The position numbers were made by a program, and so were the translations under genes. From an uncultured Gammaproteobacteria bacterium (GTDB taxonomy: Bacteria > Patescibacteriota > Microgenomatia > UBA10105 > UBA927): a stretch of 64,000 nt of DNA. The stretch is from positions 310,720 to 374,719 of the forward strand of contig CAZEVT010000001.1 in assembly GCA_964515005.1 (NCBI GenBank), read 5' to 3'. Positions within the stretch are counted from its first letter, which is position 1. Each line of letters starts with the position of its first letter. Shown here piece after piece: positions 12,941 through 47,042 of the stretch. The notes beneath the pieces were generated by a model, which was not told the DNA's origin, made no database searches, and saw only the letters and a program-made list of their open reading frames with translations.

Positions 12941-12977
12941 CTTGAATATATATTCAATTATAGGATAGGTAATTGTG

Positions 12978-24893: not shown

Positions 24894-26132
24894 ATGCAGA
24901 ACCATAGGACACTCCTTGCCGGTGCGGTTATTTTTCTTTTGTCGGTTGTATTTCGCCTGTGGTTGACCAATATCGTGCCGCAGCCGTTTGTGTACGATCA
25001 GACGGAGTACGAGGCGTATGCAGGGAAAATTTTTGCTGCACCATACATGCTTGCGGCCCATACGTATCGCTCATATCCATACCCACTGATGATTGCAGTT
25101 CTCTACAAAATTGTCGGGTTTGGCAATCACCCCGCGGTATTTGCGCTGCAGGCGGTGTTGGACAGTCTCACCGCCGTCATGGTGTATTTCATCCTGCGCC
25201 TTGCTGGCCGGAGCCGGGCGGCGTGGATCGGTTACCTCCTCTATGCGGTCAATCCTTTTACCGCGGCATATGCCGGCGTCATTCTTTCGGAAGTGCTGAC
25301 GACGTTTTTTGTTGCCGGTATGTTGCTGACCGGTGTGTATGTCATCAAAAAACCTTCGTTCCTGCGGGGCTTGTTGTTTGGTCTTTGTGCCGGCATGGCG
25401 ATTCAAACGAGAAATGCAATGACTGTCGGATCGCTCGCTGCGGTAGGGAGCATATGGTTTTGGATTTCCTGGAAATTTTATACACGGGTGTATCTCGCGA
25501 TTTTTCTGGGGTTAGTCCTTACGGTTTTGTATCCTCTTTACACAAACTGGCAGGCATATGGGCAGGTTTCCATATTTAAGGTTGATAGCTTTTACGCCAT
25601 GGAGCTCTATAACGGTGCGACGCTCAAAATTCTTCCACCGTTTATGACTAGTACCAGCTATCCCGCGGGCCAGCAGGAGATGTACCGGGAGTATTGGTCG
25701 GAATATGATTCGACGAGAACGATGTCTGACCGGCAAGATATGGCTGATAAGTATGTTGGGAAGGCCATTGCGATTATAAAAGCCGATCCGATAGAGTATA
25801 TCCGGTGGCGGTTTTTCAAAATGTGGTACGTGTGGCAGAAAGATAATATTTTTACGTATAGTGAGCCCGGATACGCGGTACATAAGCCATGGACGTTTTG
25901 GGGTAATACGATGCTCTTGGCCGCTGCGGCATTCGGTATCGTGTTTGGGTTTTTTCGCAAAAAAGGAAAGACCATGGTGTGGCTCTGGACGGCGGCGATT
26001 GCCATCATTGTTTTCCAGACGGTTGCCTTTTCATTCAGTCACGCAGAATATCGATTAAGTATTCCTTTATATCCCATCATTATTCTGTTTGCGGCACTTT
26101 GCTACAATAAAGACTATGGCAGGAGGCAATAA
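24894..26132 (+). CDS. GT-C fold membrane glycosyltransferase (ArnT/PMT-like)
   Basis: 412 aa and polytopic, with an early periplasmic-loop acidic motif (VYDQTEYEAY) typical of GT-C enzymes. Confidence 0.6.
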   Translation: MQNHRTLLAGAVIFLLSVVFRLWLTNIVPQPFVYDQTEYEAYAGKIFAAPYMLAAHTYRSYPYPLMIAVLYKIVGFGNHPAVFALQAVLDSLTAVMVYFILRLAGRSRAAWIGYLLYAVNPFTAAYAGVILSEVLTTFFVAGMLLTGVYVIKKPSFLRGLLFGLCAGMAIQTRNAMTVGSLAAVGSIWFWISWKFYTRVYLAIFLGLVLTVLYPLYTNWQAYGQVSIFKVDSFYAMELYNGATLKILPPFMTSTSYPAGQQEMYREYWSEYDSTRTMSDRQDMADKYVGKAIAIIKADPIEYIRWRFFKMWYVWQKDNIFTYSEPGYAVHKPWTFWGNTMLLAAAAFGIVFGFFRKKGKTMVWLWTAAIAIIVFQTVAFSFSHAEYRLSIPLYPIIILFAALCYNKDYGRRQ

Positions 26133-27621
26133 ACGCATCTGGGAAACCGGTATCGGTATTTTTCTTTTGGGGTTGTTGGTATATCTCCTCTTTTGGCGCT
26201 ATCAAATCGCCTCGACGAGATTTTTTGACATCGACGAGTTTGCCTATCTTCACTGGGCGGCGCAGGTTGCCCGCGGGGAGCGCATGTATGTGGATTTTTT
26301 CTCCTACTTTACGCCCGGATTTATGTGGGCGTTTACTCCTATTTTTTGGATATACGGAGTATCAACACAGGTTTTTACGGCGGCCCGGATGTTCTCTTTT
26401 GGTATCTTCTTGGGAATCGTCGGCATGGTCGGATTGCTTTTTGGCGAGACGCGTAGTGGGAAGTGGGCGCTGCTTCCGATGATTCTCTTAACCTTTTTGC
26501 CCATCCCGTATGAAAAACTTTTGGAAGTACGGCCGGATAATCTGGCGACTCTCTTAGCCTTTGGTGGGTTATTGGGAGAGATGAGGGCAATACAGGGCGA
26601 TAAAAAAGCATCACTGTGGTGGTTTATTTCGGGACTTTTGTACAGTGTGTCTTTGTTTGTACTCGTAAAAACCATGCCATTTGTGCTTGTTGGTGTGGGA
26701 GTAGCCGTTCTGGCCGTCTGGCCCATGAAAGAGTGGCAAAAATTCAGATTGTTTCTCTTGGGGCTGGGTGGGCCATGGATATTGTTTTTTTCGGTACTGT
26801 GGGTACAGGGGTACGGCGCCCAGGCTTGGTATGCACTCGTTCGTTTACCGTTTCTCGTCTATGGAAGCTTCAAAAACTTCTATATGGTGGCGACCTTATT
26901 TTTTTGGCCGAATTGGTGGCTGTATGGCGGCGACGGCAAGCACGTGACGATGGCTATGATTGTCAATCACAGTGTCTGGATTCTGGCAGGTCTCACCGGT
27001 ACATACCGGCTAGTGACCGCATTTGGCAGGAAGAGACAGGAAGGGTTGAAAGAACTGCTTATGGCGGGAACATTTTTTGTGAGTATGTTGGCATACACCA
27101 AATTTTTTCCTTTTAAGCACGGTCAGTACCTTATCCCGATTGCTGTCTTTGTTGCGTACTTTGCGGGAGACGCGTTATCGGTTTTCTTTGACCGGATGGC
27201 GAAGGCGAGGTGGTATGCACTACTGGCTCTCGTCTTTCTGGGCTTCGGATACCTATTGGTTGCGGTGAACGAGGAGGTTAATAGATTCAAACTTTCACTA
27301 ACCGCAGAAAAGCAAATGATGGAAATTTCAGCGCTTATTCAGACCGTACCCCCCTCGGCCCGTGTGGTCGATTTGGAAGGGCGAATGCTGTTTTGGCCTG
27401 CCGGATATCCCATATGCTGTTTACCGTTTGATACATTTCTGCCGTATGTGCGTGGGGGGGCGTCGCCGCTTCGGCAATATCTATCAGACCACCCGGCCGA
27501 GTATATCTATGGTGGAGAAACCGATCGTTTTACCACACTCTCTGCTGAAAATATATCATATATTCGCGCCAATTATGCTCCGGTACCGGGATTTGACGAA
27601 CGATTGAGGAAGAGAAAATGA
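26116..27621 (+). CDS. GT-C fold membrane glycosyltransferase (ArnT/PMT-like), paralog of the preceding gene
   Basis: 501 aa from ATG 26116. It has a first-loop DIDEFAY acidic motif, multiple TM helices and a C-terminal soluble domain. It overlaps the previous gene by 17 nt. Confidence 0.6.
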   Translation: MAGGNKRIWETGIGIFLLGLLVYLLFWRYQIASTRFFDIDEFAYLHWAAQVARGERMYVDFFSYFTPGFMWAFTPIFWIYGVSTQVFTAARMFSFGIFLGIVGMVGLLFGETRSGKWALLPMILLTFLPIPYEKLLEVRPDNLATLLAFGGLLGEMRAIQGDKKASLWWFISGLLYSVSLFVLVKTMPFVLVGVGVAVLAVWPMKEWQKFRLFLLGLGGPWILFFSVLWVQGYGAQAWYALVRLPFLVYGSFKNFYMVATLFFWPNWWLYGGDGKHVTMAMIVNHSVWILAGLTGTYRLVTAFGRKRQEGLKELLMAGTFFVSMLAYTKFFPFKHGQYLIPIAVFVAYFAGDALSVFFDRMAKARWYALLALVFLGFGYLLVAVNEEVNRFKLSLTAEKQMMEISALIQTVPPSARVVDLEGRMLFWPAGYPICCLPFDTFLPYVRGGASPLRQYLSDHPAEYIYGGETDRFTTLSAENISYIRANYAPVPGFDERLRKRK

Positions 27622-27643: not shown

Positions 27644-28666
27644 ATGAAACCATACCTCTCCATTGTCATCCCGCATTATCATGCACCGGAAAAGCTCGCG
27701 CGACTCCTTGCGTCGATCGGGAAAAGTAAACACGCGCCGCCCTATGAAGTGATTATTGTCGATGACGGATCGACGACCACGTTTACACATCCCGCCTTGC
27801 CGGCAGGCAGGCAACTCACCAAACCCCATGTTATTCGATTACTCAAAAATCATGGGCCTGCGGTTGCCAGGAATCGCGGAGTCGACGCCGCCCGCGGTAT
27901 GTTTATCGTATTTTTGGACTGTGACGTTGAAGTATTTCCCGACACGCTTGCGCAAATTGCCAAGATTTATAAAGACGATCCTGATGTAGTCGCCCTTACA
28001 GGCGTATGGGTCAAAGAGCAAAAAACTCGTGCGTTTTTTCCCAATTTCAAGGCGCTACGGGATTGGTCGTACTGGATCCATGAGCGGGACGCAAGCGGGT
28101 ATTACTTCCTTTTCTCGACGCGTATCGCATCAATTAAAAAGGCGGTGTTTCAGCGTTTGGGCGGATTTGACGAAACGTACCCCGCGCCGCTTGTTGAAGA
28201 TATAGAGCTTACGTACCGGATCGCCCGCCGCTACGCCATTATATTCGCCCCAAAGGTACGGGTTCGGCATGAGTTTGAGGGTTTTTGGCCCGTTGCGAAA
28301 AAATACTTTTGGCGGACATACTACTGGACGAAGCTCTACAGTGAGCGCAAGAAATTTGATCCCGTCGCCACCACCGTGCGGGAGAGTTTAACGGCCATAA
28401 CCGGGGTGGGGGCCCTCGGCGCAATTGTCCTTGGCATGCTTACGTTTTTTGTGATCCCGGTGCCGCTGATCCGCGTGGTGTTTCTTTTGACGGGAATTTT
28501 CCTTATGGCCATCCACATCTGGTTTCTTCGCACGTTCTTGTCGTTTGTGTATCGGGAAAAAGGCTTTGCGTTTGCGCTCAAGTCCCTTGGAACGGGCCTC
28601 GTTCTCTATATGGTCATTCTCTCCGGAGCCCTCTTTTACAAACTTCAATCATTGCGGGATGGTTAG
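27644..28666 (+). CDS. family 2 glycosyltransferase with C-terminal TM helices (GtrB/polyprenyl-phosphate glycosyltransferase-like)
   Basis: LSIVIPHYHA...VIIVDDGS...LDCDV motifs plus two C-terminal TM helices. Confidence 0.75.
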   Translation: MKPYLSIVIPHYHAPEKLARLLASIGKSKHAPPYEVIIVDDGSTTTFTHPALPAGRQLTKPHVIRLLKNHGPAVARNRGVDAARGMFIVFLDCDVEVFPDTLAQIAKIYKDDPDVVALTGVWVKEQKTRAFFPNFKALRDWSYWIHERDASGYYFLFSTRIASIKKAVFQRLGGFDETYPAPLVEDIELTYRIARRYAIIFAPKVRVRHEFEGFWPVAKKYFWRTYYWTKLYSERKKFDPVATTVRESLTAITGVGALGAIVLGMLTFFVIPVPLIRVVFLLTGIFLMAIHIWFLRTFLSFVYREKGFAFALKSLGTGLVLYMVILSGALFYKLQSLRDG

Positions 28667-30409
28667 CTCAGAGGGCGCGGGTGCGGCTGTGGCGGGCGTA
28701 TCACTCGCCGGCAAATTTTTGAGTGCATCCAGTTCGTTTTTTGCCTTGTAGTAATCAGAGCTTTCGGGCGGCACCAGGAGGATCGTTTTCTCAAGCGTTT
28801 CTGCAGCTTTCACCGTGTCGCCTTTGAGCCTATATGCATTAGCCAGATTATAGAGTGCATTGGCGTACCCGGGGCGAATGCGCGCCGCCCTTTCAAAAAC
28901 CCGAACCGCCTCATCATACTTTTTTTGGTGGATATAGACGGCGCCCAGATTGAGGAGTAGCAGGGGATTGTTGGGGTCAAGCTCGATGGTTTTTTCGTAA
29001 CTTGCCGCGGCCCAAGCGTCTGCGCCGGTCGCTACCGGGATAAGGCTTTGGTAGACCGATGACAAGTTTTCCCAGGCTATAACATTATTGGTATTGAGGT
29101 TAACCGCGATTTTTGCTTCCCGAATTCCTTGATCTATGAGACGTTCTATTAGTTTTTGATCCTCCTGGGCCTTCGCGCTTTCGGTTGCCGTGAGGGTTTC
29201 AAGTTCTCCGGCCAAGCTACTTGCAAGAGCGATACTTATCTGGCTGTAGGTCATGTGATATTTGGTGGCATAGGGATTAACCTTCAGAGCCCCGACGAGA
29301 AGATTGTACGCCTTAGTGCCCTCATCCCGCTTGGCGGCGGAAAGTGCTTGCATATACATGAACTGACCCCAGTACACGAATCCTACTCCTAAAAAGAGAA
29401 TAATGCCGAGCGTAAAGCAAACAAAAGCGCCCAGGATGCGTCGCCATGACCGCCATTGGGCAGGGGCATGTTCTTCCTGTTCTCTCCCCGAAAGAATAAA
29501 TACCGCTGCAATAACGGTAAGGAGGGTGACGGTCGGCGGGACAAGAAGTAGGGCCGCAAGCGAAAGGAGTTTTGGTGCCAGGAAGGTATCCTTTTTCGTA
29601 ATACCCTGTAAAATAGCGTAGGCAAAAGCGAGCCCTGCTCCCAGCCCCAAGAGGCCGTAGACGGTGGCAACATGCAGGAAAAAGTTAGCGTTTGTGGTAA
29701 ACCTGGTATTCCACAAGGCGGTCGCGCTCATCCACTGCGGCCGGCCGGCTGTATATGCGGTCACGAAATTTTCGCTGCCTACCCCCACTAGGACTCCGCG
29801 CATAGATTTAAATGTTTCAAGAACCACGCTCCCTCCGGTAGAAATGGGCAGCATGGTACTCACGCGGGGGGTGAGGTGCCATGCGGTCATGGCGGCGCCC
29901 GCCGTCACCAGGAAAGCGAAGAGAAGTAGTGGTACCGAATTTTCTTTCAGAGACGAGCGGATATCAGTGAATAGGAGCGATAGTCCAATGACAAGGAGGG
30001 CAAGCGTGGTTGTCGCGTTCCCGGTAAGATTCCATAACGGATCCGCAAGGGAAGAGGCTCCGGGAAACATAAGTTTTCCCACGCCCAATCCCTGGTAGAT
30101 GGCAATAAGTCCTACCAAGGCCGCTACCGTATAGAGAACCCAGGAGAGTCGTGCTTTGATCTTGGGACGCGCGGGGACCCCTGCGGCAACCAAAATGGCA
30201 AGCGCGATAAATGTAATTGGTCCTAGCGGCCCAACAAGCGCCTCTCCCATATTTTGAGAAACTGCTAGAAGACTAATAAGCGAGGAGGCGGCAAGTGCGG
30301 CAAATCCTATCGTTCCGGGCGAGAGGCGAAGGGGCAGGGACTTGCGGGAAGCGATGGCAATACCTGACATGATGAGGATAACGGCTGCGGCGAGGGTGAT
30401 AATCGGCAT
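28649..30409 (-). CDS. O-antigen ligase (Wzy_C)-family membrane protein fused to C-terminal TPR repeats; candidate O-oligosaccharyltransferase
   Basis: 586 aa. The N-terminal ~380 aa is polytopic with a large periplasmic loop, as in Wzy_C/PglL/PilO/WaaL. The C-terminal ~200 aa carry 4-5 TPR motifs (AYNLLVGALKVNP, YIHQKKYDEAVRVFERAARIRPGYANALYNLANAY) and end in a Pro/Ala/Thr tail. Confidence 0.65.
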   Translation of the reverse strand: MPIITLAAAVILIMSGIAIASRKSLPLRLSPGTIGFAALAASSLISLLAVSQNMGEALVGPLGPITFIALAILVAAGVPARPKIKARLSWVLYTVAALVGLIAIYQGLGVGKLMFPGASSLADPLWNLTGNATTTLALLVIGLSLLFTDIRSSLKENSVPLLLFAFLVTAGAAMTAWHLTPRVSTMLPISTGGSVVLETFKSMRGVLVGVGSENFVTAYTAGRPQWMSATALWNTRFTTNANFFLHVATVYGLLGLGAGLAFAYAILQGITKKDTFLAPKLLSLAALLLVPPTVTLLTVIAAVFILSGREQEEHAPAQWRSWRRILGAFVCFTLGIILFLGVGFVYWGQFMYMQALSAAKRDEGTKAYNLLVGALKVNPYATKYHMTYSQISIALASSLAGELETLTATESAKAQEDQKLIERLIDQGIREAKIAVNLNTNNVIAWENLSSVYQSLIPVATGADAWAAASYEKTIELDPNNPLLLLNLGAVYIHQKKYDEAVRVFERAARIRPGYANALYNLANAYRLKGDTVKAAETLEKTILLVPPESSDYYKAKNELDALKNLPASDTPATAAPAPSELTIPQ

Positions 30410-30477
30410 GGATCTATCATAATCGATTCCGACGCTGGTTGCATTTCCTGTTCATTCTTGTCATACTTTTTTACAGC

Positions 30478-30993
30478 ATGCAAAAGAACAAAACGCGCCT
30501 GCCTGCCGGCAGGCAGGGTTTTACCCTGATTGAGCTTATGATCGTCATGGTCATCCTTGCAATATTGGCGGCAGTCGGTACAAGCTCATTTATATCTTCA
30601 CAAAAAAAATCGCGCGACTCTACCAGAAAATCTAGTCTCAAGAATATTGCGACGGCACTGGAGCTGTACTACAACGATAAAGGAAAATATCCAGGCGATG
30701 ATGGAGCCGGAAAAATAAAAGGGTGCGGCGATGATATTGCTCCGACGGTCTGTCAGCCAGGCACTGCCTTTTCTGACGCCAACGGGACCATCTATATGGA
30801 GCGGCTTCCCGTCGACCCGACATCGAAGCGGCGTTACTACTACCGAGCGCCGTCGGTCAATCAGTTTCAAATCTATGCGAATTTGGAAAACGATCAGGAT
30901 TCGTCAATTATCTCAACCGACTCAAGCTGTGCCGCCAGTACCGGATCGTTTCCGTGTAACTTCGGATTAAGCAGCGCGAACATAACGCCATGA
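30478..30993 (+). CDS. type IV pilin-like protein (prepilin with N-terminal methylation motif)
   Basis: Leader [14 protein letters not shown] followed by [19 protein letters not shown], the class III signal G/FTLIE with Glu at +5. The C-terminal domain is Cys-containing. Confidence 0.75.
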
Positions 30994-31505
30994 GTATAAA
31001 ATCTACCCATTTCAAACCACATAGCGCGTTCACATTGATCGAGCTTCTGGTCGTGATTGCCATCATTGCCTCGATGGTCGCCCTTGCCCTTCCTAATTAC
31101 TTAAGTGCCCGTGAACGGGCCCGGGACAGTAAGAAAAAAAGTGAGATGCGGGAGCTTAAGGCGGCACTCCGTCTGTATTACAATGATTTCAACAACTACC
31201 CGGCAGATGACGGAGTGGGACACATAAAAGGGTGTGGAGCCGCGGGGGCGGGACCATGCCCGTGCAGTAGCACCGTAGATTTTGCCTCTGGAGCAACCTG
31301 TGACAACCTGTTCATGAAGAAATTACCCAGTGATCTGGGGGTCGGTACCTATTACTTTAAAGGAGCCAATGGTGAAGATTTCTGTCTGAGTACGCTACTT
31401 GATAACAAATCGGATCAGGATATTACTACCAGTCAATCCCGCTGTGCGTCCGTCTGCGGAATAAACTGCAACACCACCGGCCGCTTTTGTACGTGTGCGG
31501 ACTGA
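30990..31505 (+). CDS. type IV pilin-like protein (second, translationally coupled)
   Basis: Leader ...KPHSA followed by [22 protein letters not shown], with Ala at -1 and Glu at +5. It overlaps the previous pilin gene (ATGA). The C-terminal region is Cys-rich. Confidence 0.65.
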
Positions 31506-31522
31506 TAAGCGATACGGGGATT

Positions 31523-32539
31523 TCATAGCCTCACCTCTTTTCCATCCGTACGAATTGATTGAGTAGCGCTTTCTACGGCTCGGATCACCCGAATTCCCAT
31601 CGGTCCGTCGCTTACTGGATTTTCCCCTTTTGTTATTGCTTTTACAAAGTCCTCTGCCATAGTCAAAAGTCCTTCTCTCATAGGCAAACGCGGCGCGGTC
31701 ATCCCGCCGGTTCGGTAACCGATGCGCAGTTGGTACTGCGCGTGCGGATCAGTGAGCGCGGAAATTCCTTTATCGTAGATTTTAATTTTTTCAGACGGCT
31801 CGATGTCGTTATAGACAAGCATCCGTTTGGTGCCCACAAACATCATAGTTCTGATTTTTACCGGCGACAACCAGCTCACGTGGGTATGGAAAAAGAGCCC
31901 GTTCGGATAGCGCGCCGTGATATAGGCGACCGTTTCCTGCTGCATTTTTTGAGGTGCAAATCCGGTTCCTGATACGGCGTTGGGTGCTTTGGCGAACATA
32001 TAGTCGATGATAGAAAAATCGTGAGTAGCGAGATCAAAAATGACATTGCTGTCGCTGCGTATTACGCCTAAATTAGTTCGTACTGAATCGATGAAGAAAA
32101 CTTTTCCGAGCTGACCGCTTTGGATAATGTCACGAATCTTTATGACTTCCGGGGTATAGAGATACGTATGGTCCACCATAAGGGTTCGCTTCCTGCTTTT
32201 GGCCAGGGCTACGAGGATTATCGCTTCGGCAACAGTGGGGGAGAGAGGTTTTTCGACGAGGACATGCTTGCCAGCCGATAGAGCTGCCTGCGCCAGTGAC
32301 ACATGCGTAGCCAGTGGCGTCGCAATGACGACTGCGTCCGTCTTGGGGTCCGCCAAAACTTGACGAACATCGGTTGTGGTTTTGGCTGTAGGGTACTGTC
32401 TTGGAATATCTTTGAGTACGTGGGGGTTACGGTCGCAGATCCAGGAAATGTCAACGTTCGGAAGGGAGCGTATGTTGCGTGCGACATTCGGTCCCCAGTA
32501 GCCGAAACCAATAATACCAATATGAATCATAGGTGACAT
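31523..32539 (-). CDS. Gfo/Idh/MocA-family NAD(P)-dependent sugar oxidoreductase
   Basis: Rossmann fold IGIIGFGYWGPNVARN and EKP motif (VLVEKPLS). It resembles nucleotide-sugar 3-dehydrogenases of O-antigen pathways. Confidence 0.8.
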   Translation of the reverse strand: MSPMIHIGIIGFGYWGPNVARNIRSLPNVDISWICDRNPHVLKDIPRQYPTAKTTTDVRQVLADPKTDAVVIATPLATHVSLAQAALSAGKHVLVEKPLSPTVAEAIILVALAKSRKRTLMVDHTYLYTPEVIKIRDIIQSGQLGKVFFIDSVRTNLGVIRSDSNVIFDLATHDFSIIDYMFAKAPNAVSGTGFAPQKMQQETVAYITARYPNGLFFHTHVSWLSPVKIRTMMFVGTKRMLVYNDIEPSEKIKIYDKGISALTDPHAQYQLRIGYRTGGMTAPRLPMREGLLTMAEDFVKAITKGENPVSDGPMGIRVIRAVESATQSIRTDGKEVRL

Positions 32540-32574
32540 GTGGACAAAGCAAATGGTATTATAACTCAATTATT

Positions 32575-33357
32575 ATGTATGTCACTGACATCAAGAAACA
32601 AACGCGTCATTTTATTGAGCTTCTGTGGGTTACCACGGAAAAGGAATTGCGGACCCGGTATAAATATACAATTTTGGGATTTTTGTGGATCGTGTTTATA
32701 CCGCTTTTGCAGATGTTGGTAATCGGATTTATTTTTACTTTTTTTGTTAAAGAACAGATTCCCCGGTATAACTACTTTCTCTATATAGGCCTTCTGATAT
32801 GGAATTTTTTTGCACTTTCGGTTGCGAAGGCAACATCGAGCATGATCAGTGAGCGCGACCTCATCACCCGGGCAAAATTTCCCCGGATCATTATCCCGCT
32901 ATCGATTATTTTTTCTAACCTCACCCATTTCCTATTGGGACTCGTTTTAGTCATTATTGCACTTCTTCCCGCGGGAACACTTCACCCATGGAGCATCGTT
33001 GTTGTCGTTTTTGCGACCGCACTTTTGATTCTCTTTACGATCGGGTTTTCGGGCTGGACGACGGCGCTCAATGTTCGGTATCGGGATATTAATTTTTTGG
33101 TACAGGCAATCCTAATGTTATGGTTTTACGCCACTCCCATTGTGTACCCCTTGTATTTTATTGCTAGTCCCATGCAGTGGCTTTGGTACTTCAACCCCCT
33201 CACAAGCGTTGTTGAAATCTATCAGTGGGCGCTTGTGGGGACTCCGGGCCCCGGCTGGGGGCTTTTTATGGCAAACGTAGCCGAAATTTTGGGAATAGGT
33301 ATTATGGGTATTATCTTCTTCAACCGAAAAAGTAAACATTTTGCCGATTGGATATGA
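32575..33357 (+). CDS. ABC-2 type polysaccharide/teichoic-acid export permease (Wzm/TagG-like)
   Basis: Six TM helices. It is adjacent to and overlaps a Wzt/TagH-like ATPase gene. Confidence 0.75.
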   Translation: MYVTDIKKQTRHFIELLWVTTEKELRTRYKYTILGFLWIVFIPLLQMLVIGFIFTFFVKEQIPRYNYFLYIGLLIWNFFALSVAKATSSMISERDLITRAKFPRIIIPLSIIFSNLTHFLLGLVLVIIALLPAGTLHPWSIVVVVFATALLILFTIGFSGWTTALNVRYRDINFLVQAILMLWFYATPIVYPLYFIASPMQWLWYFNPLTSVVEIYQWALVGTPGPGWGLFMANVAEILGIGIMGIIFFNRKSKHFADWI

Positions 33358-34124
33358 GAAGAAATAAACACAATAAGCAGGTTATATTGACGCTTGCAGG
33401 TATTACCAAATATTACACGATTCATCATGAAAAACCGCTTCTGTTTGATGAGTTCATGCGTGTTGGCAATGAACGATTCCCGGCCGTCAAGAACGTTCGT
33501 CTGACGGTCTATAAAGGGGAAAAAATAGGTATTTTGGGACCCAACGGTTCAGGTAAAACGACGCTTCTCAAGCTCGTCTCCGGCATAATCGTTCCGACCA
33601 GCGGGAGGCTTGTCTTGGGAGGAACTGTGGTGCCGATTATTGACGCTGAAGCAGGGTTTCATCCGGATCTTACTGGTGAGCAGAATATCTATTTAAATGG
33701 ACTTATTATGGGTATGACCAGGAAAGAAATCCGGCAGCAATTATTCCGTATTATAGAGTTTGCTGAGCTTGGACGCTTTATTGACGTACCGTTTTATACG
33801 TACTCGCAGGGCATGAAGCTGCGTCTTGGGCTTGCTATAGCATTGTATGCCAATCCCGATATCTTACTTCTTGACGAGGGTATTGGCGCGGGTGATAAAG
33901 AATTTCAAAAGAAGGTGCAGGCTAAAGTCCACGAACTGTTTACCTCCGGGATGACGGTCATGATTGCCTCACATTGGCTGGGGTATCTTAAGAAGTACTG
34001 CACGCGGATTCTTATTATGGACCACGGGAGAATTATTGCGGACGGTACGACGAAACTTGTGGGGCAGTACACGAAAATGAAATTTAACCACGAACGCATT
34101 CTGCACGTAGGAAGAAAAAAATAA
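33348..34124 (+). CDS. ABC transporter ATP-binding protein (Wzt/TagH-like)
   Basis: Walker A GPNGSGKTT, ABC signature YSQGMKLRLGLA, Walker B ILLLDEGI. Confidence 0.8.
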   Translation: MDMRRNKHNKQVILTLAGITKYYTIHHEKPLLFDEFMRVGNERFPAVKNVRLTVYKGEKIGILGPNGSGKTTLLKLVSGIIVPTSGRLVLGGTVVPIIDAEAGFHPDLTGEQNIYLNGLIMGMTRKEIRQQLFRIIEFAELGRFIDVPFYTYSQGMKLRLGLAIALYANPDILLLDEGIGAGDKEFQKKVQAKVHELFTSGMTVMIASHWLGYLKKYCTRILIMDHGRIIADGTTKLVGQYTKMKFNHERILHVGRKK

Positions 34125-35057
34125 CTAGTTATTTTTTACCACGTTTTCCACAGGAGGAATAGGAGTAATTTTTGCAAAGAAAAATGCAATGAGCAGTCCC
34201 CAACACACATGATACAGATCAGCAAACACGTCATATAAGAAGCCGGGAGGGGAACGCCGTGCGTGAATGAGTGCCTTCATCTCATCGGTAATACCTTGAA
34301 AAGTTTCTGCAATATATGATTGCATTACTTCCCGACACTCTGACACTCCCAGGAGTCCGTAGAAGCCATACGCTGCTATACCGCCACACAAGTACGAGTG
34401 CGCCTGATGTTTGGCTTCGGCAATTGTGAGCCATTTATTGTGGTATACGATCATTGACGGATTGTATGCTATCGTGTGCCGGGCGATGAGGGCGCGAAGA
34501 ATAAACTCGGCATCCTCAGCATTGTGTCCAATAGAGCCGGGGCCCAGCCACCATTTGTACCTGCCGATAGCGTCAAACACCTGTTTTTTTATCACGGCAT
34601 TATTGTCATACCCCACATCAATCCAATGCCGGCTAATGTGTGATGTCACCGTAAACTTGTTTGGTTTTTTTGTGAATGTACAGGGACAGATTTGCCCTGT
34701 GTGTTCTTCGGGGTGGTAGGCATGCGTCTGTCCGTACACGAGAGCGATTAATGGATCAGAAAGTGTCACCACTGCCTTCGAAACCCAATCTTTGTCTAAA
34801 TAACAATCATCGTCGGTTAAACCAACTAGCTCTGTGTGCACTTCATCAAGACCCCTGTTTATCGCCCTGCTTCTTCCTGTGTTGGTGAGCTTGATGTGCA
34901 CGACCTTCGATTGATGATTGGTATAGCTGTTTGCAGATCCTTGGGTAACTAAGACTATTTTGGCGAGTCGTGCGTCACGAAGAACCTCTTTCCATATATT
35001 TGGGTATACGACGCCTTCTCTGTTTGAGCAGACTACCAGTGTAAGTGTTGGCTTCAT
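34125..35057 (-). CDS. family 2 glycosyltransferase
   Basis: GT-A fold with DDD region (GLTDDDCYLD). It has no TM helices. Confidence 0.7.
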   Translation of the reverse strand: MKPTLTLVVCSNREGVVYPNIWKEVLRDARLAKIVLVTQGSANSYTNHQSKVVHIKLTNTGRSRAINRGLDEVHTELVGLTDDDCYLDKDWVSKAVVTLSDPLIALVYGQTHAYHPEEHTGQICPCTFTKKPNKFTVTSHISRHWIDVGYDNNAVIKKQVFDAIGRYKWWLGPGSIGHNAEDAEFILRALIARHTIAYNPSMIVYHNKWLTIAEAKHQAHSYLCGGIAAYGFYGLLGVSECREVMQSYIAETFQGITDEMKALIHARRSPPGFLYDVFADLYHVCWGLLIAFFFAKITPIPPVENVVKNN

Positions 35058-35104
35058 GGAAACAAGTATAAACCATACGATATGCTATAGTATCTTACAA
35101 AACC

Positions 35105-36493
35105 ATGCATATCCTTCACAAATCATATCTACGGAGATTCAGACGTTTACTTGAATTTGTTCTAAAAACGAACACGTTCTACAAAAAAAAATACACGAAG
35201 AAAGGAATCGTTTCTGCTGCCCAAATCAAGACATGGGAAGATTTTTTCTCTCTGCCTCTTACCACGAGGTATGAACTTATAGGCGACCAGGAGCGCACTC
35301 CTCCTTTTGGCACAAATATTAGTCGCCCGCTTTCCCAGTATTCTTTTGTGATACGTACATCGGGTACATCGACGGGGCGGCCGTTCTTCCAACCTCTGAC
35401 TCATGATGAATTCAATCGGTTTGTTGAGGTCATGATAGCCGGCTATGAAGAAATGGGTCTTAAGTCAGGTGACATTGTTTCTTATGTGAGCGCTCCACAC
35501 GCATATCCGCTTTTTTACGAAATAACTCACCGCATGGGTGCGCGCATGGTACCGGTCGAAACCCATACATCCTTCGATTTTTTGACTCGGATACAAACTA
35601 TGAACGTAAATGTGCTTCAAGCCTATCCTACTGCTCTATTTGAACTTATGGAATTGGCAAAAGATCATCATATTGATCTTCGGCGTTTGGGACTGAAAAA
35701 AATTTTTACTATCGGAGAAGTCGGAGGGGGACACCCTCCAACCAAGGCGTTGCTTGAACGTGTATGGGGGGCCAAGGTGATCGATCATATAGGATCGTTG
35801 GAATCTGGAACACTTGCTGTGATTTGTCCAAAAGGAAATGGGTATCATCTTTTGGAAGATTTGTTTATCGCTGAGGTATTTGCATTGGATGCTGATATAC
35901 CCACACGCCGAGGCGAGCTCGTTTTGACATCATTTTGGAGACGAGATTATCCTCTTATCCGATACAGGACAGGCGATATGGTAGAGATTGAGTATGGGAG
36001 ATGCTCCTGCGGGAAAACAACGCCGCGACTTATCAATGGCATTTTAGGAAGAGTAACGGGACAATTGAGACTGCGTGCAGCTATGCTTTTCCCCGAAGAT
36101 ATTGAGCGAGTGTTGCGATCCCACACACAGGTTCTGGAATATCAAGTTATCTGTAGGAAACCTCATGGCATTGATGTGGTTGATATATATGCCGAGTTAT
36201 CACTAAAGACTACTCGCGGTGAACTTGTCGCATTAATCGATGATCTTGATAATCTACTTGGTTTTGCTCCCAACCTCTATCCGATGCTCCCTAAGATGCT
36301 CCCCCGTTTCGATCTGCAAAAGGGGAGTCGGTTTCATGATTATAGAATATCTAAAACTGATACGCGTGAACCGGTAGGGTTACCCAAAAGGATTCTATCA
36401 AAGATCGTATGGTCCCTCTTTATCTGGAATAATCAAAGCAACATGGTAAAGAAATATATTTCTTTTGTTCATACTATACTCAAAAGAAATTAA
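35105..36493 (+). CDS. CapK/PaaK-like adenylate-forming enzyme (phenylacetate-CoA ligase / coenzyme F390 synthetase family)
   Basis: AMP-binding core (IRTSGTSTGRPF ... YRTGD). Its size and architecture match CapK proteins of capsule loci. Confidence 0.6.
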   Translation: MHILHKSYLRRFRRLLEFVLKTNTFYKKKYTKKGIVSAAQIKTWEDFFSLPLTTRYELIGDQERTPPFGTNISRPLSQYSFVIRTSGTSTGRPFFQPLTHDEFNRFVEVMIAGYEEMGLKSGDIVSYVSAPHAYPLFYEITHRMGARMVPVETHTSFDFLTRIQTMNVNVLQAYPTALFELMELAKDHHIDLRRLGLKKIFTIGEVGGGHPPTKALLERVWGAKVIDHIGSLESGTLAVICPKGNGYHLLEDLFIAEVFALDADIPTRRGELVLTSFWRRDYPLIRYRTGDMVEIEYGRCSCGKTTPRLINGILGRVTGQLRLRAAMLFPEDIERVLRSHTQVLEYQVICRKPHGIDVVDIYAELSLKTTRGELVALIDDLDNLLGFAPNLYPMLPKMLPRFDLQKGSRFHDYRISKTDTREPVGLPKRILSKIVWSLFIWNNQSNMVKKYISFVHTILKRN

Positions 36494-36534
36494 CTCTTGA
36501 TTTTTAGAAACAACATATATATCATAAGCCAATT

Positions 36535-37578
36535 ATGCCGATGAAGACTCGTTTTCTTCCACTTATCTTTATTCTTCTTATCGTGATGGCAGGGTTGTGG
36601 GTCTGGATGAGTGCAAAAAATAATGCTAGCAAAAAGCCTGTTTCAACCAATGGTCTACCAGTTATTATATTGGGAGCGGCTCCACCATCATCCAATGATC
36701 TAGCAGCTCGTGTTATTCGCAAATACGGATGGGATAAAGAAGCAGGGTTTCAATTGGAAACTCGGGCTGTCGCGCCGGAAGTTGCTATACCTACAATCAT
36801 CGGCGGGACGGTCGACATCATTGGCATGACACCTTTGGCGGCTTTGACGACCGTCAATCCAGAAAAGCCTATTACCATTTTGGCAAACGGTAATATTGTG
36901 TATTGTCCATTTTTCGTTCCCGAGGGGAGTACACTCACAACCTGGCAAGAGCTTAAGGGTAAACGTTTGGGAGCCACAGCGATTGTGGGGCCATCCTACA
37001 ACATGACCAAAATTGCTATGAAACTCAAGGAAAATTTGGATATGGATAAAGCGTTTATTGTTTCTAATTCGCCGTTCCCGGAGCTTATTCCACGATTATC
37101 ACGAGGTGAAATAGATGGTGCCATAGGCCGGTGTGGTGAAGTTGGGATAGCCAAAGCAGTGGTTGAAGCAAAGTTTAAAGTCATTGGAAATCTCACTGAC
37201 ATCCTATACAAAGATGGAGACTTGAGCGAGCTCATGATGGAAGCCTTGGTGACGACACGTGATTGGGCGACTACCCATAGTGAGCTTGCGATAGCGTTCC
37301 GTGAGACCTTGTATCGAGCCTATGCGTACATCAAAGATCATCCAGAAGTGTATGATGATCCTGACATACAAAAAGCCTACGCTCTTGATAAATCCACACC
37401 CGACGTTATAGCCAAAGTTAAAGAACTCGTTCCCATATTTTACGCCTTCAAGACATGGTCAGAAGCAATAGATTCACAGTACAAGTTTCTCAAAATGGCT
37501 CAAGAAGCGGGATTTTTTACAGAAGTTCCTGTCAAAGAAGAACTCTTTTTCAATCCCAGCGTATCGCCTCAACCATAA
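36535..37578 (+). CDS. ABC transporter substrate-binding protein (NMT1/THI5, SsuA/TauA-like)
   Basis: N-terminal TM/signal anchor and a periplasmic-binding-protein fold. It is followed by a permease and an ATPase. Confidence 0.65.
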   Translation: MPMKTRFLPLIFILLIVMAGLWVWMSAKNNASKKPVSTNGLPVIILGAAPPSSNDLAARVIRKYGWDKEAGFQLETRAVAPEVAIPTIIGGTVDIIGMTPLAALTTVNPEKPITILANGNIVYCPFFVPEGSTLTTWQELKGKRLGATAIVGPSYNMTKIAMKLKENLDMDKAFIVSNSPFPELIPRLSRGEIDGAIGRCGEVGIAKAVVEAKFKVIGNLTDILYKDGDLSELMMEALVTTRDWATTHSELAIAFRETLYRAYAYIKDHPEVYDDPDIQKAYALDKSTPDVIAKVKELVPIFYAFKTWSEAIDSQYKFLKMAQEAGFFTEVPVKEELFFNPSVSPQP

Positions 37579-37599
37579 AAGAAGGATTTAAATAGGCTC

Positions 37600-38394
37600 A
37601 TGAATAGCGCATTACTTCGTGGTCGTTTTTTTCGACAGATATGGATGTTTATTTTGCGCGTACTCCCCGAAAGTGTCGGCATCATAGGTTTTTTGGCTGT
37701 TTGGTATGGAGTGAGCGTGCAGATTCCTGGTTTTCTTTTACCCTCCCCAATAACCACTTTTTTTGATACCGTGGAAACACTCACATCGTCGGATTTTTGG
37801 GCAAACGCGGCGCTCACGTTTGGGCGATCTCTTGAGGGACTTATCGTTGCCTTTGTGCTTGCAAACATCGCGGCGATTTTAAGCGCTGCCAGTAGGGTTG
37901 CCAAAAAAGGGTTATGGCCGCTTATTCTTTTGGGCAACTCATTCCCCGGTACGATCGCCACGTTTATTGCGGTGGTTGTCTTGGGTTCGCGCGGGCCTGT
38001 GGCAATAACGGTGGAAGTTGCGCTTCTGGGACCGCTATTATTTTATATGTTATATCCGGCTTATGAGGCCATTGACAAAAATCTCTATGAACTCGCTGTC
38101 GTATTTCGTCTTTCAAACGTCACGTACCTTCGATCTATCGTTCTTCCTCAGCTTGCTCCGGCACTTTTTGCAGCCATCCGCACTGGTCTTGCCAACGGGT
38201 GGAAGCTTGTGGTAACCGCCGAGGTATTTAGCCTGGGTGATGGCGTGGGGTACCGAATTCTTCAATATTTTAACCTTTTTTCCTTGCGGCATGTATTTGC
38301 TTGGTTGTTGTCGTTTCTTCTGATTATGCTTGCTGTTGAATATCTCTTGGTGGCACCCTTTGAACGATGGGTGGTCGCCCGAGGCAGAAAGTAA
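37600..38394 (+). CDS. ABC transporter permease (SsuC/TauC-like, BPD_transp_1)
   Basis: Six TM helices with the EAA-type loop (LYELAVVFRLSNVTYLRSIVLPQLAPAL). Confidence 0.8.
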   Translation: MNSALLRGRFFRQIWMFILRVLPESVGIIGFLAVWYGVSVQIPGFLLPSPITTFFDTVETLTSSDFWANAALTFGRSLEGLIVAFVLANIAAILSAASRVAKKGLWPLILLGNSFPGTIATFIAVVVLGSRGPVAITVEVALLGPLLFYMLYPAYEAIDKNLYELAVVFRLSNVTYLRSIVLPQLAPALFAAIRTGLANGWKLVVTAEVFSLGDGVGYRILQYFNLFSLRHVFAWLLSFLLIMLAVEYLLVAPFERWVVARGRK

Positions 38395-38400
38395 TACAGT

Positions 38401-39147
38401 ATGAGAGACATAACCCTTTCGCGGATTGATGTGTCGTTTGCAACAGGAGTGGAGTTATTTCGTGATTTTTCTCTTACCATTCCAAAAAAGAGCTGCGTAT
38501 GTTTGTTCGGACCTTCAGGGTGCGGTAAAACGACACTTTTACACATTCTTGCCGGTTTGAGGAAGCCGGATAATGGCATGGTAAAATATAGTAACGCCGC
38601 TCGTGGTGGCCTCGGATCACCGATTATCGGGTACGTCTTTCAAGAACCCCGACTTTTATCCTGGATGACGTCAAAAGAAAACGTAGCGCTTGTACTAGAT
38701 TCGGTCATTGCGCGCAAAGATCAAGACCGTCACATTGCCCGTTTCCTTAAGCTCGTACGACTGTCGGGTCACAGTAACCGATACCCACAGGAGCTCTCCG
38801 GTGGAGAAAGGCAGCGCGTGAGTCTGGCTCGGGCGTTAAGTGTGAGCCCCGAGATTCTGCTTTTGGATGAACCATTTAGCCATCTTGATGAACTCACCGC
38901 GACAACGCTGCGTGCGGATTTTTTGAGGGTATTTGAGCAAATTCGCGCAACGACGGTATTTGCGACGCATAATCCTCTGGAAGCTATATATCTTGCCGAT
39001 GTGATCGTCGTACTTTCCAACGCTAAACCCACGTACATAAAAAAAATCATCAATATACCGAAGAAGAAATTAAGAACCCATGATCTGTATGGTTCCCTTA
39101 TTTTTGAGAAGCAAACAAAACGCCTCATACGGCAGATGTTTGGGTGA
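38401..39147 (+). CDS. ABC transporter ATP-binding protein (SsuB/TauB-like)
   Basis: Walker A GPSGCGKTT, signature LSGGERQRVSLARAL, Walker B LLLDEPFSHLD. Confidence 0.85.
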   Translation: MRDITLSRIDVSFATGVELFRDFSLTIPKKSCVCLFGPSGCGKTTLLHILAGLRKPDNGMVKYSNAARGGLGSPIIGYVFQEPRLLSWMTSKENVALVLDSVIARKDQDRHIARFLKLVRLSGHSNRYPQELSGGERQRVSLARALSVSPEILLLDEPFSHLDELTATTLRADFLRVFEQIRATTVFATHNPLEAIYLADVIVVLSNAKPTYIKKIINIPKKKLRTHDLYGSLIFEKQTKRLIRQMFG

Positions 39148-39157
39148 AATAGTCAAC

Positions 39158-39913
39158 CTAATAATAGATACTCATGGGAGAGAGTTTCGGTTCCATCTCT
39201 TCTATGATTTTGCGGGGAATGGGATTGTCGCCAAGTATTAATATATTTAGGTTGGGCGGTAAGAATGCGGGAAAGGTGTCAAGACGATTGCCCGTGAGAT
39301 CCAGTATCCCTAATTTGTTCAAATTGCCAATTGAAGGCGGAAGCGACTCCAGTCGATTATATGAAAGGTTTAGTACCGCAAGATTTTGAAGTTGTCCGAT
39401 GGTCGACGGGAGGCGCGTGAGATTATTCCCAAGCAATGAAAGGTCTTCAAGATTTGTGAGATTGCCTATCGCGTCGGGGAGAGTAGTGAGTCGTGTGTTG
39501 GTAATGAACATAGTGCGAAGCCCGGTAAGTTTTCCTATCTCGTCGGGAAGCGTGCGTATGGGATTTTGATTGATCCAAAGTCCGGTTACATTGTGGACAG
39601 AGCCGATCAGAGGAGAGATGGTCGATACATGATCATCGGAGTCAAGCCCTATAAATACATCTGAGAGACTACGACTGCTTTCTTCCATCTTCACAAAAAA
39701 CGTTTCTTGTGAATATGTGGTTTCACCATACAGTGCATCCTTAGAGAAGACATACTCCCGTTGTAAGGGGATGCTTCGCATAGCGGGAAGCAAGGCCATC
39801 ACAACGCGGAAACTCACGAAAGCGGTTATGAATCCAAGAATCATCGCTATTGCGATACGGTAGGGTGCGTGAGTATCGGTCAGGATGGGTGGTTGCGCCT
39901 CGATTGTTGTCAT
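39158..39913 (-). CDS. membrane-anchored leucine-rich-repeat (LRR) protein
   Basis: An N-terminal TM helix is followed by about seven 23-residue LRRs (LxxLxxLxLxxNxLxxLPxxIGx). Confidence 0.75.
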   Translation of the reverse strand: MTTIEAQPPILTDTHAPYRIAIAMILGFITAFVSFRVVMALLPAMRSIPLQREYVFSKDALYGETTYSQETFFVKMEESSRSLSDVFIGLDSDDHVSTISPLIGSVHNVTGLWINQNPIRTLPDEIGKLTGLRTMFITNTRLTTLPDAIGNLTNLEDLSLLGNNLTRLPSTIGQLQNLAVLNLSYNRLESLPPSIGNLNKLGILDLTGNRLDTFPAFLPPNLNILILGDNPIPRKIIEEMEPKLSPMSIYY

Positions 39914-39941
39914 AGGAACGTATGGGATACAATATCATTAT

Positions 39942-41634: not shown

Positions 41635-41674
41635 AGCGCAGTTTATTGCATATTGTATGATACAATCGTCGAAA

Positions 41675-45100: not shown

Positions 45101-45107
45101 GGATTCT

Positions 45108-47031: not shown

Positions 47032-47042
47032 ACGTCTTTACG

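Follow-up and report, generated by a model that had tools for sequence, protein, structure and literature searches.

The window, by which we mean the whole 64,000-nucleotide stretch of DNA that was analysed, carries a gene whose product joins a WaaL-fold membrane module (Wzy_C superfamily) to a C-terminal TPR domain, and which belongs to a Microgenomates-specific family retained beside pilin-like genes and a giant surface protein. What we regard as established is that the protein combines a WaaL fold with a TPR domain, that its topology is predicted as described below, that its neighbourhood is conserved and that the canonical catalytic triad has been lost. A transfer activity for the family, its donor and its acceptors are what we infer.

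A WaaL-fold membrane protein with a C-terminal TPR domain

The original prediction placed at this locus a membrane protein of O-antigen-ligase (WaaL) topology with a C-terminal TPR array, close to two coupled prepilins on the opposite strand, and proposed that they form a pilin O-glycosylation module. The open reading frame is real, and fold, TPR and topology analyses agree on a polytopic protein with a genuine TPR domain. The focal gene, its pilin-like neighbours and the giant surface protein are as follows.

28649..30409, minus strand: focal gene, 586 aa, WaaL-fold (Wzy_C superfamily) membrane protein with a C-terminal TPR domain
29375..30409, minus strand: focal membrane domain, aa 1–345, about 10 TM helices
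28721..29320, minus strand: focal TPR domain, aa ~364–563, about five TPR-like helix pairs, predicted to be extracytoplasmic
28652..28720, minus strand: focal C-terminal tail directly after the TPR domain, P/A/T-rich, last residues SELTIPQ
30478..30993, plus strand: pil1, prepilin-like, cleavage motif G↓FTLIELM, matching N_methyl (7.5e-10), T2SSG and GspG (2.6e-17)
30990..31505, plus strand: pil2, prepilin-like, matching the N_methyl, T2SSG and GspG models
57981..58655, plus strand: pil3, 224 aa, Cys-rich and prepilin-like, with a PTPTPTPTP linker
58664..63859, minus strand: giant surface protein, at least 1731 aa, with Laminin_G_3 (PF13385, 1.6e-14) and a Gly-rich region

The focal ATG (position 30409) is preceded by an in-frame stop 12 codons 5' of it. 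The membrane domain is polytopic and WaaL-like in fold, its large helical loop outside the membrane (aa 186–242) contains the sequence GVGSENF, and the C-terminus comprises multiple 34-residue helix-turn-helix repeats of the TPR type. In a positive-inside topology analysis the density of Lys and Arg alternates from loop to loop (0.11–0.22 versus 0.00–0.07), and this alternation predicts that the conserved motifs and the TPR domain lie outside the membrane. Throughout the family the WaaL-fold module is followed by one extra TM helix and then by the TPR domain, an arrangement in which the extra helix sets the TPR domain outside the cell.

The focal protein itself gave no match to PF04932 (Wzy_C) at E ≤ 0.1 and did not reach the gathering score of that model; PF04932 was matched by 14 of 42 family members (best E-value 1.9e-11), and comparison of the family with canonical Wzy_C proteins by hhalign gave an E-value of 2.8e-5 and a probability of 74%. 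Two further Wzy_C genes had also been predicted in the window and were recovered, one of them with its start at 41612 in place of 41675. Profile searches of the three proteins had a divided outcome: the two further proteins matched PF04932, the focal protein did not, and PglL_A (Pfam) was matched at E ≤ 0.1 by none of the three.

The catalytic His and Arg residues, whose conservation had been proposed as a check, are not retained. E. coli WaaL R215 corresponds to focal G130 (Gly in 37 of 42 family members), R288 to G192 (G/S/A across the family) and H338 to A241 (S in 22, A in 12 and G in 3 members), the last of these in the motif TNANFFLH, where motif mapping also puts Ala241 at the canonical His position. 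The mapping was drawn from three independent alignments, in which the His column is solid and the Arg columns fall in lower-confidence regions. PglL residues R224/R298/H349 are the equivalents of the WaaL triad and are conserved among PglLs (PMC3643930); their columns in the focal family are identical to those of WaaL R215/R288/H338 and are likewise substituted throughout. Because the family lacks the three catalytic residues that known ligases share with pilin glycosylases, a role in glycosylating pilins is only a possibility. CPR/Patescibacteria are generally reported to lack LPS, and if so a lipid-A-core acceptor is unlikely for this protein.

The family comprises at least 600 clusters at 50% identity, and searches with it recovered essentially only MAGs labelled Patescibacteria or unclassified. 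Candidatus Gottesmanbacteria and other Microgenomates MAGs are the nearest relatives, making the predicted CPR origin of the window plausible from sequence relationships. In the family, the polar residues under the strongest conservation are all placed in outward-facing loops, and motifs and residues such as YDTNK in loop 1, SxNKxEAL, WTPTG, K201, GxGxxNF, N228, W233 and R236 are kept outside the window/L001 clade at less than 25% overall identity. Such very strong conservation of outward-facing polar motifs has the appearance of a ligand-binding or active site. In the membrane domain, conservation is lowest in the window copy and its closest relative: both are N-terminally truncated and miss the first TM helix of the family together with loop 1 and the near-invariant Lys of that loop, both have also lost W193, N228 and P128, and they keep 21 of 33 and 20 of 32 family-conserved membrane-domain positions, respectively. 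Their TPR domains are normally conserved; there the window copy is 70% identical to P0002, against 50% for the membrane domain.

Pilin-like, surface-protein and glycan genes around the family

The focal ATG and the pil1 ATG are separated by a gap of 68 bp on opposite strands, close to the ~70 bp originally given, and the start of pil2 overlaps the stop of pil1 (ATGA). An alternative TTG start for pil1 lies at 30439. All three pilin-like proteins, including the third one that had been predicted and is confirmed by its pilin profile match, carry a class III signal (G/A↓F-T-L-[IV]-E) followed by a hydrophobic helix (N_methyl, TIGR02532, above cutoff); they may be minor pilins. Orthologs of pil1 end in CN[YW]G[IL]SSAN..P, with SSAN 5–7 residues from the C-terminus, and those of pil2 end in ..CAD. 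PT-repeat surface proteins had been expected in the locus; PT repeats were found in pil3 (58467..58490) and in the ORF at 51661..52212 (minus strand), and nowhere else in the window. A 26-kb glycan block separates pil2 from pil3 in the window. In the closest relative pil3 is contiguous with pil2 and pil1, and it is the pilin type most often retained beside the family gene in distant lineages.

Pilin-like genes lie near the family gene beyond chance. Across 85 Microgenomates loci the flanks of the family gene, out to 3 kb, contain 1.33 pilin-like ORFs per 10 kb versus 0.09 per 10 kb farther off (~15-fold enrichment), and the association is retained in relatives at 28–58% identity. It takes three forms (a divergent trio, a same-strand pil3-like gene and a convergent trio), and the trio is kept at 14 of 21–23 near-clade loci. 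The predicted partnership with pilins is supported to that extent, but the most widespread neighbour is the giant, fibre-like surface protein, homologs of which are encoded upstream on the same strand at 50 of the 85 loci. Its conserved C-terminal domain ends in FNWWIIN and gives a borderline match to PF24146. The synteny of the housekeeping genes LysM/M23 and Rho with the family gene is about as conserved as that of the giant gene, and part of the neighbourhood thus reflects vertical inheritance.

Glycan-synthesis genes flank the focal gene on both sides:

24894..26132: PMT_2 protein
26089..27621, plus strand: TM510, divergent GT-C-type membrane glycosyltransferase, found near the focal gene across the Gottesmanbacteria clade
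27644..28666, plus strand: GT2 glycosyltransferase (Pfam) with C-terminal TM helices
32533..34124, plus strand: Wzm/Wzt-type ABC-2 polysaccharide exporter pair (Pfam ABC2_membrane, ABC_tran), within the block between pil2 and pil3
41612..43141, plus strand: canonical Wzy_C protein (PF04932, 3.8e-11), SR and HN motifs kept
48852..50867, minus strand: canonical Wzy_C protein (PF04932, 1.1e-15), SGAR, ERW and AHS motifs kept, unassigned C-terminal extension of ~340 aa

The GT2 gene and the focal gene converge with an 18-nt overlap, and the GT2 product is a putative GtrB/Ppm1-like polyprenyl-phosphate sugar synthase. No Pfam model matched TM510 itself; its distant homologs match PF13231 (PMT_2) or PF09594 (GT87), and its first loop contains a D-x-D-E motif. 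The GT2 and GT-C pair and sugar-modification genes also occur in the neighbourhood at Gottesmanbacteria loci, with GT2 kept at 21 of 24 near-clade loci and TM510 at 11 or more; in distant loci GT2 and GT-C were found at only 2 and 1, respectively.

Possible functions of the family

We tentatively favor for the family a role as a glycan ligase that acts on proteins, comparable to PglL and to the predicted S-layer O-OTase WsfB. In this scheme the TPR arm would serve as a docking site for secreted proteins encoded nearby (the giant protein and the pil3-type pilin, perhaps pil1 and pil2 as well), and the membrane module would carry a polyprenyl-linked glycan on its outer side and pass it on to the docked protein. 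In its favour are the predicted external position of the TPR domain and the conserved motifs, an architecture like that of described O-OTases, the enrichment of pilin ORFs, the giant-protein homologs upstream and the glycan-synthesis genes on both sides. Since the canonical Arg/Arg/His triad is substituted throughout the family, catalysis would have to rely on a rewired site, for which the conserved outward-facing loop-1 Lys, K201, R236, N53, N228 and H/Q246 are candidate residues. The window copy lacks several of these, and its own activity may consequently be reduced or lost. Counting against a protein-directed ligase are the family-wide replacement of the triad, the lack of PglL_A and Wzy_C matches for the window protein, the degenerate membrane domain of the window copy and its closest relative, and the partly inherited synteny. 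In addition, in the distant part of the family a pilin lies within 3 kb at only 8–9 of 54 loci, and pilin glycosylation in Saccharibacteria is predicted only.

The loss of all three catalytic residues also speaks for a pseudoenzyme, a somewhat doubtful possibility in which the WaaL-fold module merely anchors an external TPR scaffold. At the membrane, that scaffold would chaperone, dock or arrange the giant fibre, the pilin cassette or both, with no glycan transfer. The erosion of the membrane domain in the window lineage, beside a TPR domain that stays conserved, agrees with such a role. The TPR proteins PilW/PilF and Tgl are pilus assembly factors, and the NCBIfam TPR matches include these, all of them generic and far below cutoff. 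Opposed to this are the outward-facing polar motifs, so strongly kept outside the window/L001 clade, and the one third of family members that still match Wzy_C. A glycopolymer ligase or polymerase acting on a non-protein acceptor (a lipid anchor, the cell wall or a growing glycan chain) appears unlikely; the pilins and giant protein would then be bystanders or mere binders of the polymer made. Wzy_C spans polymerases as well as ligases, and Wzy polymerases work without the WaaL His. The gene also sits at the edge of a glycan cluster (GT2, GT-C, methyltransferases and Wzm/Wzt, with sugar aminotransferases in relatives), its synteny is partly inherited backbone, and the C-terminal domain of the giant protein resembles that of a capsule lyase tailspike (borderline), which is compatible with a glycan-binding fibre. 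But TPR domains are typical of protein recognition, ligase or polymerase roles at the locus could already be filled by its two canonical Wzy_C proteins, whose R/H motifs are intact, and pilin proximity has been maintained through three different rearrangements.

Glycosylation of the pilins or their PT linkers might instead be carried out by the neighbouring GT2 and GT-C proteins (TM510 and the PMT_2 protein), with the Wzy-TPR protein not being the transferase. Such a system would be akin to Ppm1/PMT of actinobacteria or to TfpW. PMT enzymes classically act on PT-rich linkers, and the GT2 and GT-C (PMT_2-like) pair is an equally good candidate for O-glycosylating them, given its retention in the near clade, the PMT_2 and GT87 matches among distant TM510 homologs and the D-x-D-E motif. 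As an account of the locus this is nevertheless quite unlikely: the pair is confined to the near clade whereas pilin and giant-protein proximity extends further, and nothing links it to proteins over teichoic-acid-like polymers; CsbB/YfhO-type systems follow the same logic. The original prediction, a dedicated PglL/TfpO-type pilin O-OTase using the standard Und-PP-glycan mechanism on pil1 and pil2, now seems improbable. Its basis stands (the fold, the external TPR domain and the conserved pilin proximity, including the divergent adjacency to pil1/pil2 and the retained trio), the SSAN of pil1 orthologs and the PT linker of pil3 would suit it, and pilin-adjacent O-OTases have precedent (PMC3643930). 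However, the R/R/H triad is absent and PglL_A was not detected, truncation and degeneration mark the window copy, the gene and the pilins diverge where pilO/tfpO are co-oriented and downstream (PMC3643930), and the giant protein is the deeper conserved partner.

An equally improbable explanation is that the family is a new WaaL-fold class without Arg/Arg/His chemistry, attaching or sorting surface clients onto the CPR envelope. The external TPR domain would recognise a conserved client C-terminal domain ending in FNWWIIN or YYIIN, shared by giant fibre proteins and by small membrane-anchored proteins whose genes lie directly upstream, and the clients would be attached or sorted together with the pil3-type pilin. 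If true, the family would serve to anchor or sort surface proteins in a manner specific to CPR, instead of being a glycosylase.

Comparison with known systems

A Wzy_C-TPR protein beside pilins had been thought an undescribed arrangement, but WsfB and PglL are both described as Wzy_C proteins with a C-terminal TPR (PMC2943079), and pilin genes adjoin 21 of 31 PglL homologs, an adjacency recognised as a hallmark of O-OTases (PMC3643930). By description the focal protein shares its Wzy_C-type domain and C-terminal TPR fusion with WsfB, the predicted S-layer O-OTase of Paenibacillus alvei. WsfB and WsaB/WsaA (Geobacillus stearothermophilus, WsaB being likewise a predicted S-layer O-OTase) belong to monoderm hosts, as the focal host is presumed to be, and in both settings a surface-glycan cluster with an ABC transporter lies beside a large surface-protein gene, with the TPR protein WsaA encoded beside WsaB (PMC2943079). 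Unlike those systems, the CPR family has the canonical Arg/Arg/His substituted and has pilin-like genes in its neighbourhood.

PglL (Neisseria; Acinetobacter, where it lies beside comP) resembles the focal protein in its WaaL-like fold, its frequently adjacent pilin or target gene and its reported C-terminal TPR; the focal protein differs in lacking a PglL_A match and equivalents of R224/R298/H349, in being divergent from the pilins and in its CPR host. The acceptor of TfpO is a C-terminal Ser of pilin. PilO/TfpO (Pseudomonas aeruginosa group I, Acinetobacter) likewise place a Wzy_C-superfamily gene directly beside a pilin gene, TfpO being downstream of pilA in the same orientation (PMC3643930), whereas the focal gene is divergent, adjoins three pilin-like genes and encodes a large TPR domain and no catalytic His. 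Relative to WaaL (Cupriavidus metallidurans 7TPG/7TPJ; E. coli K-12), the focal protein lacks R215/R288/H338, has an extra C-terminal TM helix and a TPR domain, presumably has no lipid A-core acceptor in its host and, in the window copy, is missing the first TM helix. The GT2 and TM510 pair recalls Ppm1/PMT O-mannosylation and pilin arabinosylation by TfpW (GT-C), in which a membrane-anchored GT2 and a polytopic GT-C occur beside PT-linker proteins or pilins, but differs in that it has no established direct membership of those families. Wzy_C-TPR O-OTases are already described, and the focal family is a further variant of that architecture, one that lacks the canonical triad.

Fold, predicted topology and catalytic positions

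The Wzy-TPR gene, whose start is fixed by an in-frame stop 12 codons upstream of its ATG, encodes a product of 586 amino acids and lies among the following genes and elements.

Features of the window discussed in the text
5667..7277 and 24894..26132: PMT_2 proteins
708..15266: S1 protein, RadA, Rho (10765..12312) and LysM/M23 peptidase (14169..15266)
26089..27621, plus strand: TM510, membrane protein
27644..28666, plus strand: GT2, membrane-anchored, with C-terminal TM helices
28649..30409, minus strand: Wzy-TPR gene
30410..30445, minus strand: loop-1 remnant
30478..30993, plus strand: pil1 (alternative TTG start at 30439)
30990..31505, plus strand: pil2
31506..57980: 26.4-kb block
41612..43141, plus strand: canonical Wzy_C gene
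48852..50867, minus strand: canonical Wzy_C gene with a C-terminal extension of ∼340 aa (48852..49870, minus strand)
51661..52212, minus strand: ORF with PT repeats
57981..58655, plus strand: pil3
58664..63859, minus strand: giant surface protein

Pfam and NCBIfam recognised only the TPR repeats of the product (residues ∼420–560), with no match to Wzy_C or PglL_A at E ≤ 0.1. When the membrane domain was modelled alone (pLDDT 83), the sole credible Foldseek match was WaaL (7tpg_B, probability 0.99). PF04932 was matched by 14 of the 42 aligned family members (best 1.9e-11), and hhalign comparison of the family with a small alignment of canonical sequences, built from E. coli WaaL, both of the window's other Wzy_C proteins and three homologs, returned an E-value of 2.8e-5 and a probability of 74% across the GxGxxxF...HN motif region; against single canonical Wzy_C sequences the probabilities were 0.3–1.4%, which is too weak, and the method is usable only against such small alignments. 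Profile searches of PDB sequences returned nothing but TPR proteins with the full family alignment, and no matches with the membrane-domain alignment. The original prediction of an O-antigen-ligase-type membrane protein is upheld by the fold and by transitive homology, which make the membrane region Wzy_C-like, and not by a direct profile match.

The density of Lys and Arg alternates from loop to loop (0.11–0.22 versus 0.00–0.07). The topology predicted from this alternation puts the large loop (residues 186–242) and all conserved motifs outside, and an extra transmembrane helix beyond the WaaL core would carry the TPR domain outside as well. The tail of the protein (28652..28720, minus strand) starts as a linker rich in P, A and T and closes with a conserved S[SE]LT[LI]PQ, in place of which distant family members have PP[IL][ED]LP.

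Schulz et al. equate residues R215, R288 and H338 of E. coli WaaL with R224, R298 and H349 of PglL, which are conserved among PglLs (PMC3643930). We verified the three positions in the E. coli WaaL sequence, and their mapping onto the family agreed in three alignments (MAFFT-add, hhalign versus EcWaaL+Wzy2+Wzy3, and hhalign versus a larger canonical alignment); the mapping is firm for the His, while the two Arg columns fall in regions of lower confidence. Where the canonical frame reads H-N-x-x-L-Q-x-x-x-E-x-G-x-x-G, the family has [S/A]-N-x-x-L-[H/Q]-x-x-T-x-x-G-L-L-G. At the position of the catalytic His the window protein has Ala241, in a column that holds Ser in 22, Ala in 12 and Gly in 3 of the 42 members; the R288 column is occupied by Gly, Ser or Ala, and the R215 column by Gly (Gly130 in the window protein; 37/42 members). 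The window's two other Wzy_C proteins retain SR, RW and H[NS]. Conservation of the catalytic His and Arg had been proposed as a check, and the answer is negative family-wide, with all three columns replaced. Assignment as WaaL proper is rejected, since the triad is missing and LPS is probably absent in the host. Several outward-facing polar residues are strongly conserved in the family (the loop-1 Lys, N53, K201, N228, W233, R236 and H/Q246), and a rewired active site is possible.

State of the window copy

A membrane-domain search over 1.8 billion representatives (E ≤ 1e-3) matched 623 clusters, nearly all of 600–700 aa; the lineage-wide family comprises at least 600 clusters. Query residues 3–7 align with positions ∼40–50 of the cluster proteins, so the first TM helix of the family and the conserved loop FFLPxTQxFYDTNKW are missing from the window protein. 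Motif regex and tblastn searches for these elements across the whole window found only the remnant directly upstream of the ATG, IDYDRS (compare FYDTNK), which is in frame behind the stop codon. The start of pil1 sits where the lost helix would be encoded.

The protein of the closest relative (P0002, locus L001; 58% identity) is even further truncated. The two are the least conserved members at family-conserved membrane-domain columns, keeping 21/33 (window protein) and 20/32 (P0002) as compared with a median near 0.9. In the TPR domain both match other members in conservation (65/77 conserved columns kept in the window protein), and identity between the two is 70% in the TPR domain versus 50% in the membrane domain. 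The window gene is a truncated, degenerate copy and not the best experimental representative of its family.

Pilin genes, surface proteins and conserved neighbourhood

The predicted pair of coupled prepilin genes divergent from the Wzy-TPR gene was borne out: pil1 and pil2 both matched the N_methyl, T2SSG and GspG models, overlap by ATGA, and begin 68 bp (ATG to ATG) from the Wzy-TPR gene on the opposite strand. The third pilin (pil3) and the two further Wzy_C genes were likewise confirmed, and PT repeats are present in pil3 as well as in the ORF listed. A promoter scan of the divergent intergenic region performed no better than on shuffled sequence. A perfect 8-bp-stem palindrome, CCTGCCTGCCGGCAGGCAGG, lies within the leader-peptide codons of pil1 (30498..30517), and a related core, TTGCCGGCAGGCAG, within GT2 (27797..27810); both encode LPAGRQ, and the degenerate core has 3 matches versus 0.05 expected. 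Among orthologs at loci L001–L024, pil1 products end in CN[YW]G[IL]SSAN..P and pil2 products in ..Y.xCAD; those of pil3 have 12–14 conserved Cys, with a PT/PS linker in about half.

A scan restricted to one genome per species found 247 relatives, from which 80 loci were retrieved; those correctly labelled belong to Gottesmanbacteria, Amesbacteria, Shapirobacteria, Chisholmbacteria, Collierbacteria, Roizmanbacteria and Woesebacteria. Many TPA metagenome-assembled genomes that hold the family (L008, L011–L014 and others) go under the titles ‘uncultured Gammaproteobacteria’, ‘Pseudomonadales’, ‘Micrarchaeota’ or ‘Bathyarchaeia’; the family is CPR-specific, and these records are probably mislabelled.

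The usual order in the near clade (L001–L024, 32–58% identity) is giant protein (plus), pil2, pil1 and pil3 (minus), Wzy-TPR (plus), then GT2 and TM510 (minus). Up to 3 kb from the family gene there are 1.33 pilin-like ORFs per 10 kb, and farther off 0.09; the corresponding densities are 3.34 and 0.19 for the near clade and 0.47 and 0.05 for the distant group. This proximity outlasts rearrangement: the pilin trio may be divergent, or convergent and downstream (L054, L063, L075), and elsewhere one pil3-like gene lies upstream in the same orientation (L059, L066, L070, L074, L077, L079). The most widespread neighbour is a giant-protein homolog, upstream on the same strand at 50/85 loci (39/61 distant ones). 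LysM/M23 and Rho are almost as conserved, so that part of the synteny is plain inheritance; S1, RadA, Rho and M23 are also present in the window. In distant relatives, for instance at L005, this backbone stands right next to the Wzy-TPR gene, and between the window's backbone genes glycosylation genes have accumulated (GT2, PMT_2, DUF2298, YfhO-like and NPCBM).

The window's giant protein contains a Laminin_G_3 domain and a Gly-rich stretch of ∼260 aa (residues ∼340–600), and its homologs contain collagen-like or Gly-rich repeats, including long N-terminal G-x-T-G-x-T repeats in L003:299-4114 and L014:1728-5978. A conserved C-terminal domain of ∼70 aa (58664..58870, minus strand), ending in FNWWIIN, is borderline to PF24146 K1-lyase_C of K1 capsule lyase (E 9e-6; 26.5 bits versus a cutoff of 27). 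At 17 of 54 distant Microgenomates loci the gene directly upstream of Wzy-TPR encodes a small, TPR-like protein with a TM anchor and this same domain at its end (for example L059:3020-3880, L066:1901-2413, L070:2459-3196 and L077:4489-5325).

In L001, pil3, pil2 and pil1 are contiguous, which suggests that the window's block between pil2 on one side and pil3 with the giant gene on the other was inserted into a pilin operon. The block encodes a Gfo/Idh/MocA oxidoreductase, a Wzm/Wzt exporter, GT2/GT4 genes, an NMT1-type ABC importer, an LRR protein, the two canonical Wzy_C genes, a radical SAM/SPASM gene, Alg13/14-like genes, two sulfatases and a phosphodiesterase. The extension of the minus-strand Wzy_C protein matches no Pfam family and has no similarity to the TPR domain of the Wzy-TPR protein; a search of 5.8 billion proteins found only 3 homologs besides the window's own protein, and phmmer against the PDB gave nothing useful.

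TM510 has no Pfam match itself; matches of its distant homologs to PMT_2 or GT87 mark it as a divergent GT-C enzyme. It and GT2 make up a pair, conserved across the near clade, that resembles Ppm1/PMT or GtrB/GtrC. The layout matches that of polyprenyl-phosphate-sugar-dependent extracytoplasmic glycosylation.

Candidate functions and relation to known systems

The genes and layout of the proposed pilin O-glycosylation module are confirmed, and its interpretation is partly supported. We tentatively favour a glycan ligase resembling WsfB/PglL, directed at proteins and using a rewired active site, whose clients would be the giant protein and pilins encoded nearby; the fold, the TPR domain predicted outside and the persistent neighbours are consistent with it, and the replaced triad is the difficulty. 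A non-catalytic TPR scaffold is nearly as likely, especially for the degenerate window copy, with its eroded membrane domain and well-kept TPR domain; the polar residues conserved family-wide fit it less readily. A ligase or polymerase acting on a non-protein acceptor is a somewhat less probable reading, compatible with the fold; the retained pilin proximity speaks against it.

That the GT2/GT-C pair is the real glycosylation route seems rather unlikely; its layout speaks for this reading, and its near-restriction to the near clade against it. A standard PglL/TfpO-type pilin enzyme is the most improbable of these readings, pilin adjacency speaking for it and the loss of all three catalytic residues against it.

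Host attachment in CPR/Patescibacteria depends on pili and giant surface proteins. A WaaL-fold family with an external TPR domain, encoded beside such proteins and lacking the canonical triad, provides a concrete, testable handle on CPR surface biogenesis; the fold alone is not a sufficient basis for an O-antigen-ligase or pilin O-OTase annotation of genes of this kind.

A Wzy_C-TPR fusion beside pilins had been put forward as a novel arrangement, a claim that does not hold, since each element is already known. A C-terminal TPR motif has been reported for WsfB and PglL, and the gene neighbouring WsaB encodes a TPR protein, WsaA (PMC2943079); pilin genes adjoin PglL homologs in 21/31 cases (PMC3643930). 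The family resembles WsfB and PglL in its Wzy_C+TPR architecture and PglL homologs in its pilin adjacency. Pilin glycosylation in Saccharibacteria is predicted only, and our literature searches found no description of the CPR Wzy-TPR family. What appears to be new is a CPR-wide family that, as judged from its alignments, has lost the R/R/H triad, that has links with giant fibre proteins and with a pilin of the pil3 type, and that co-occurs with the GT2/GT-C pair in Gottesmanbacteria.
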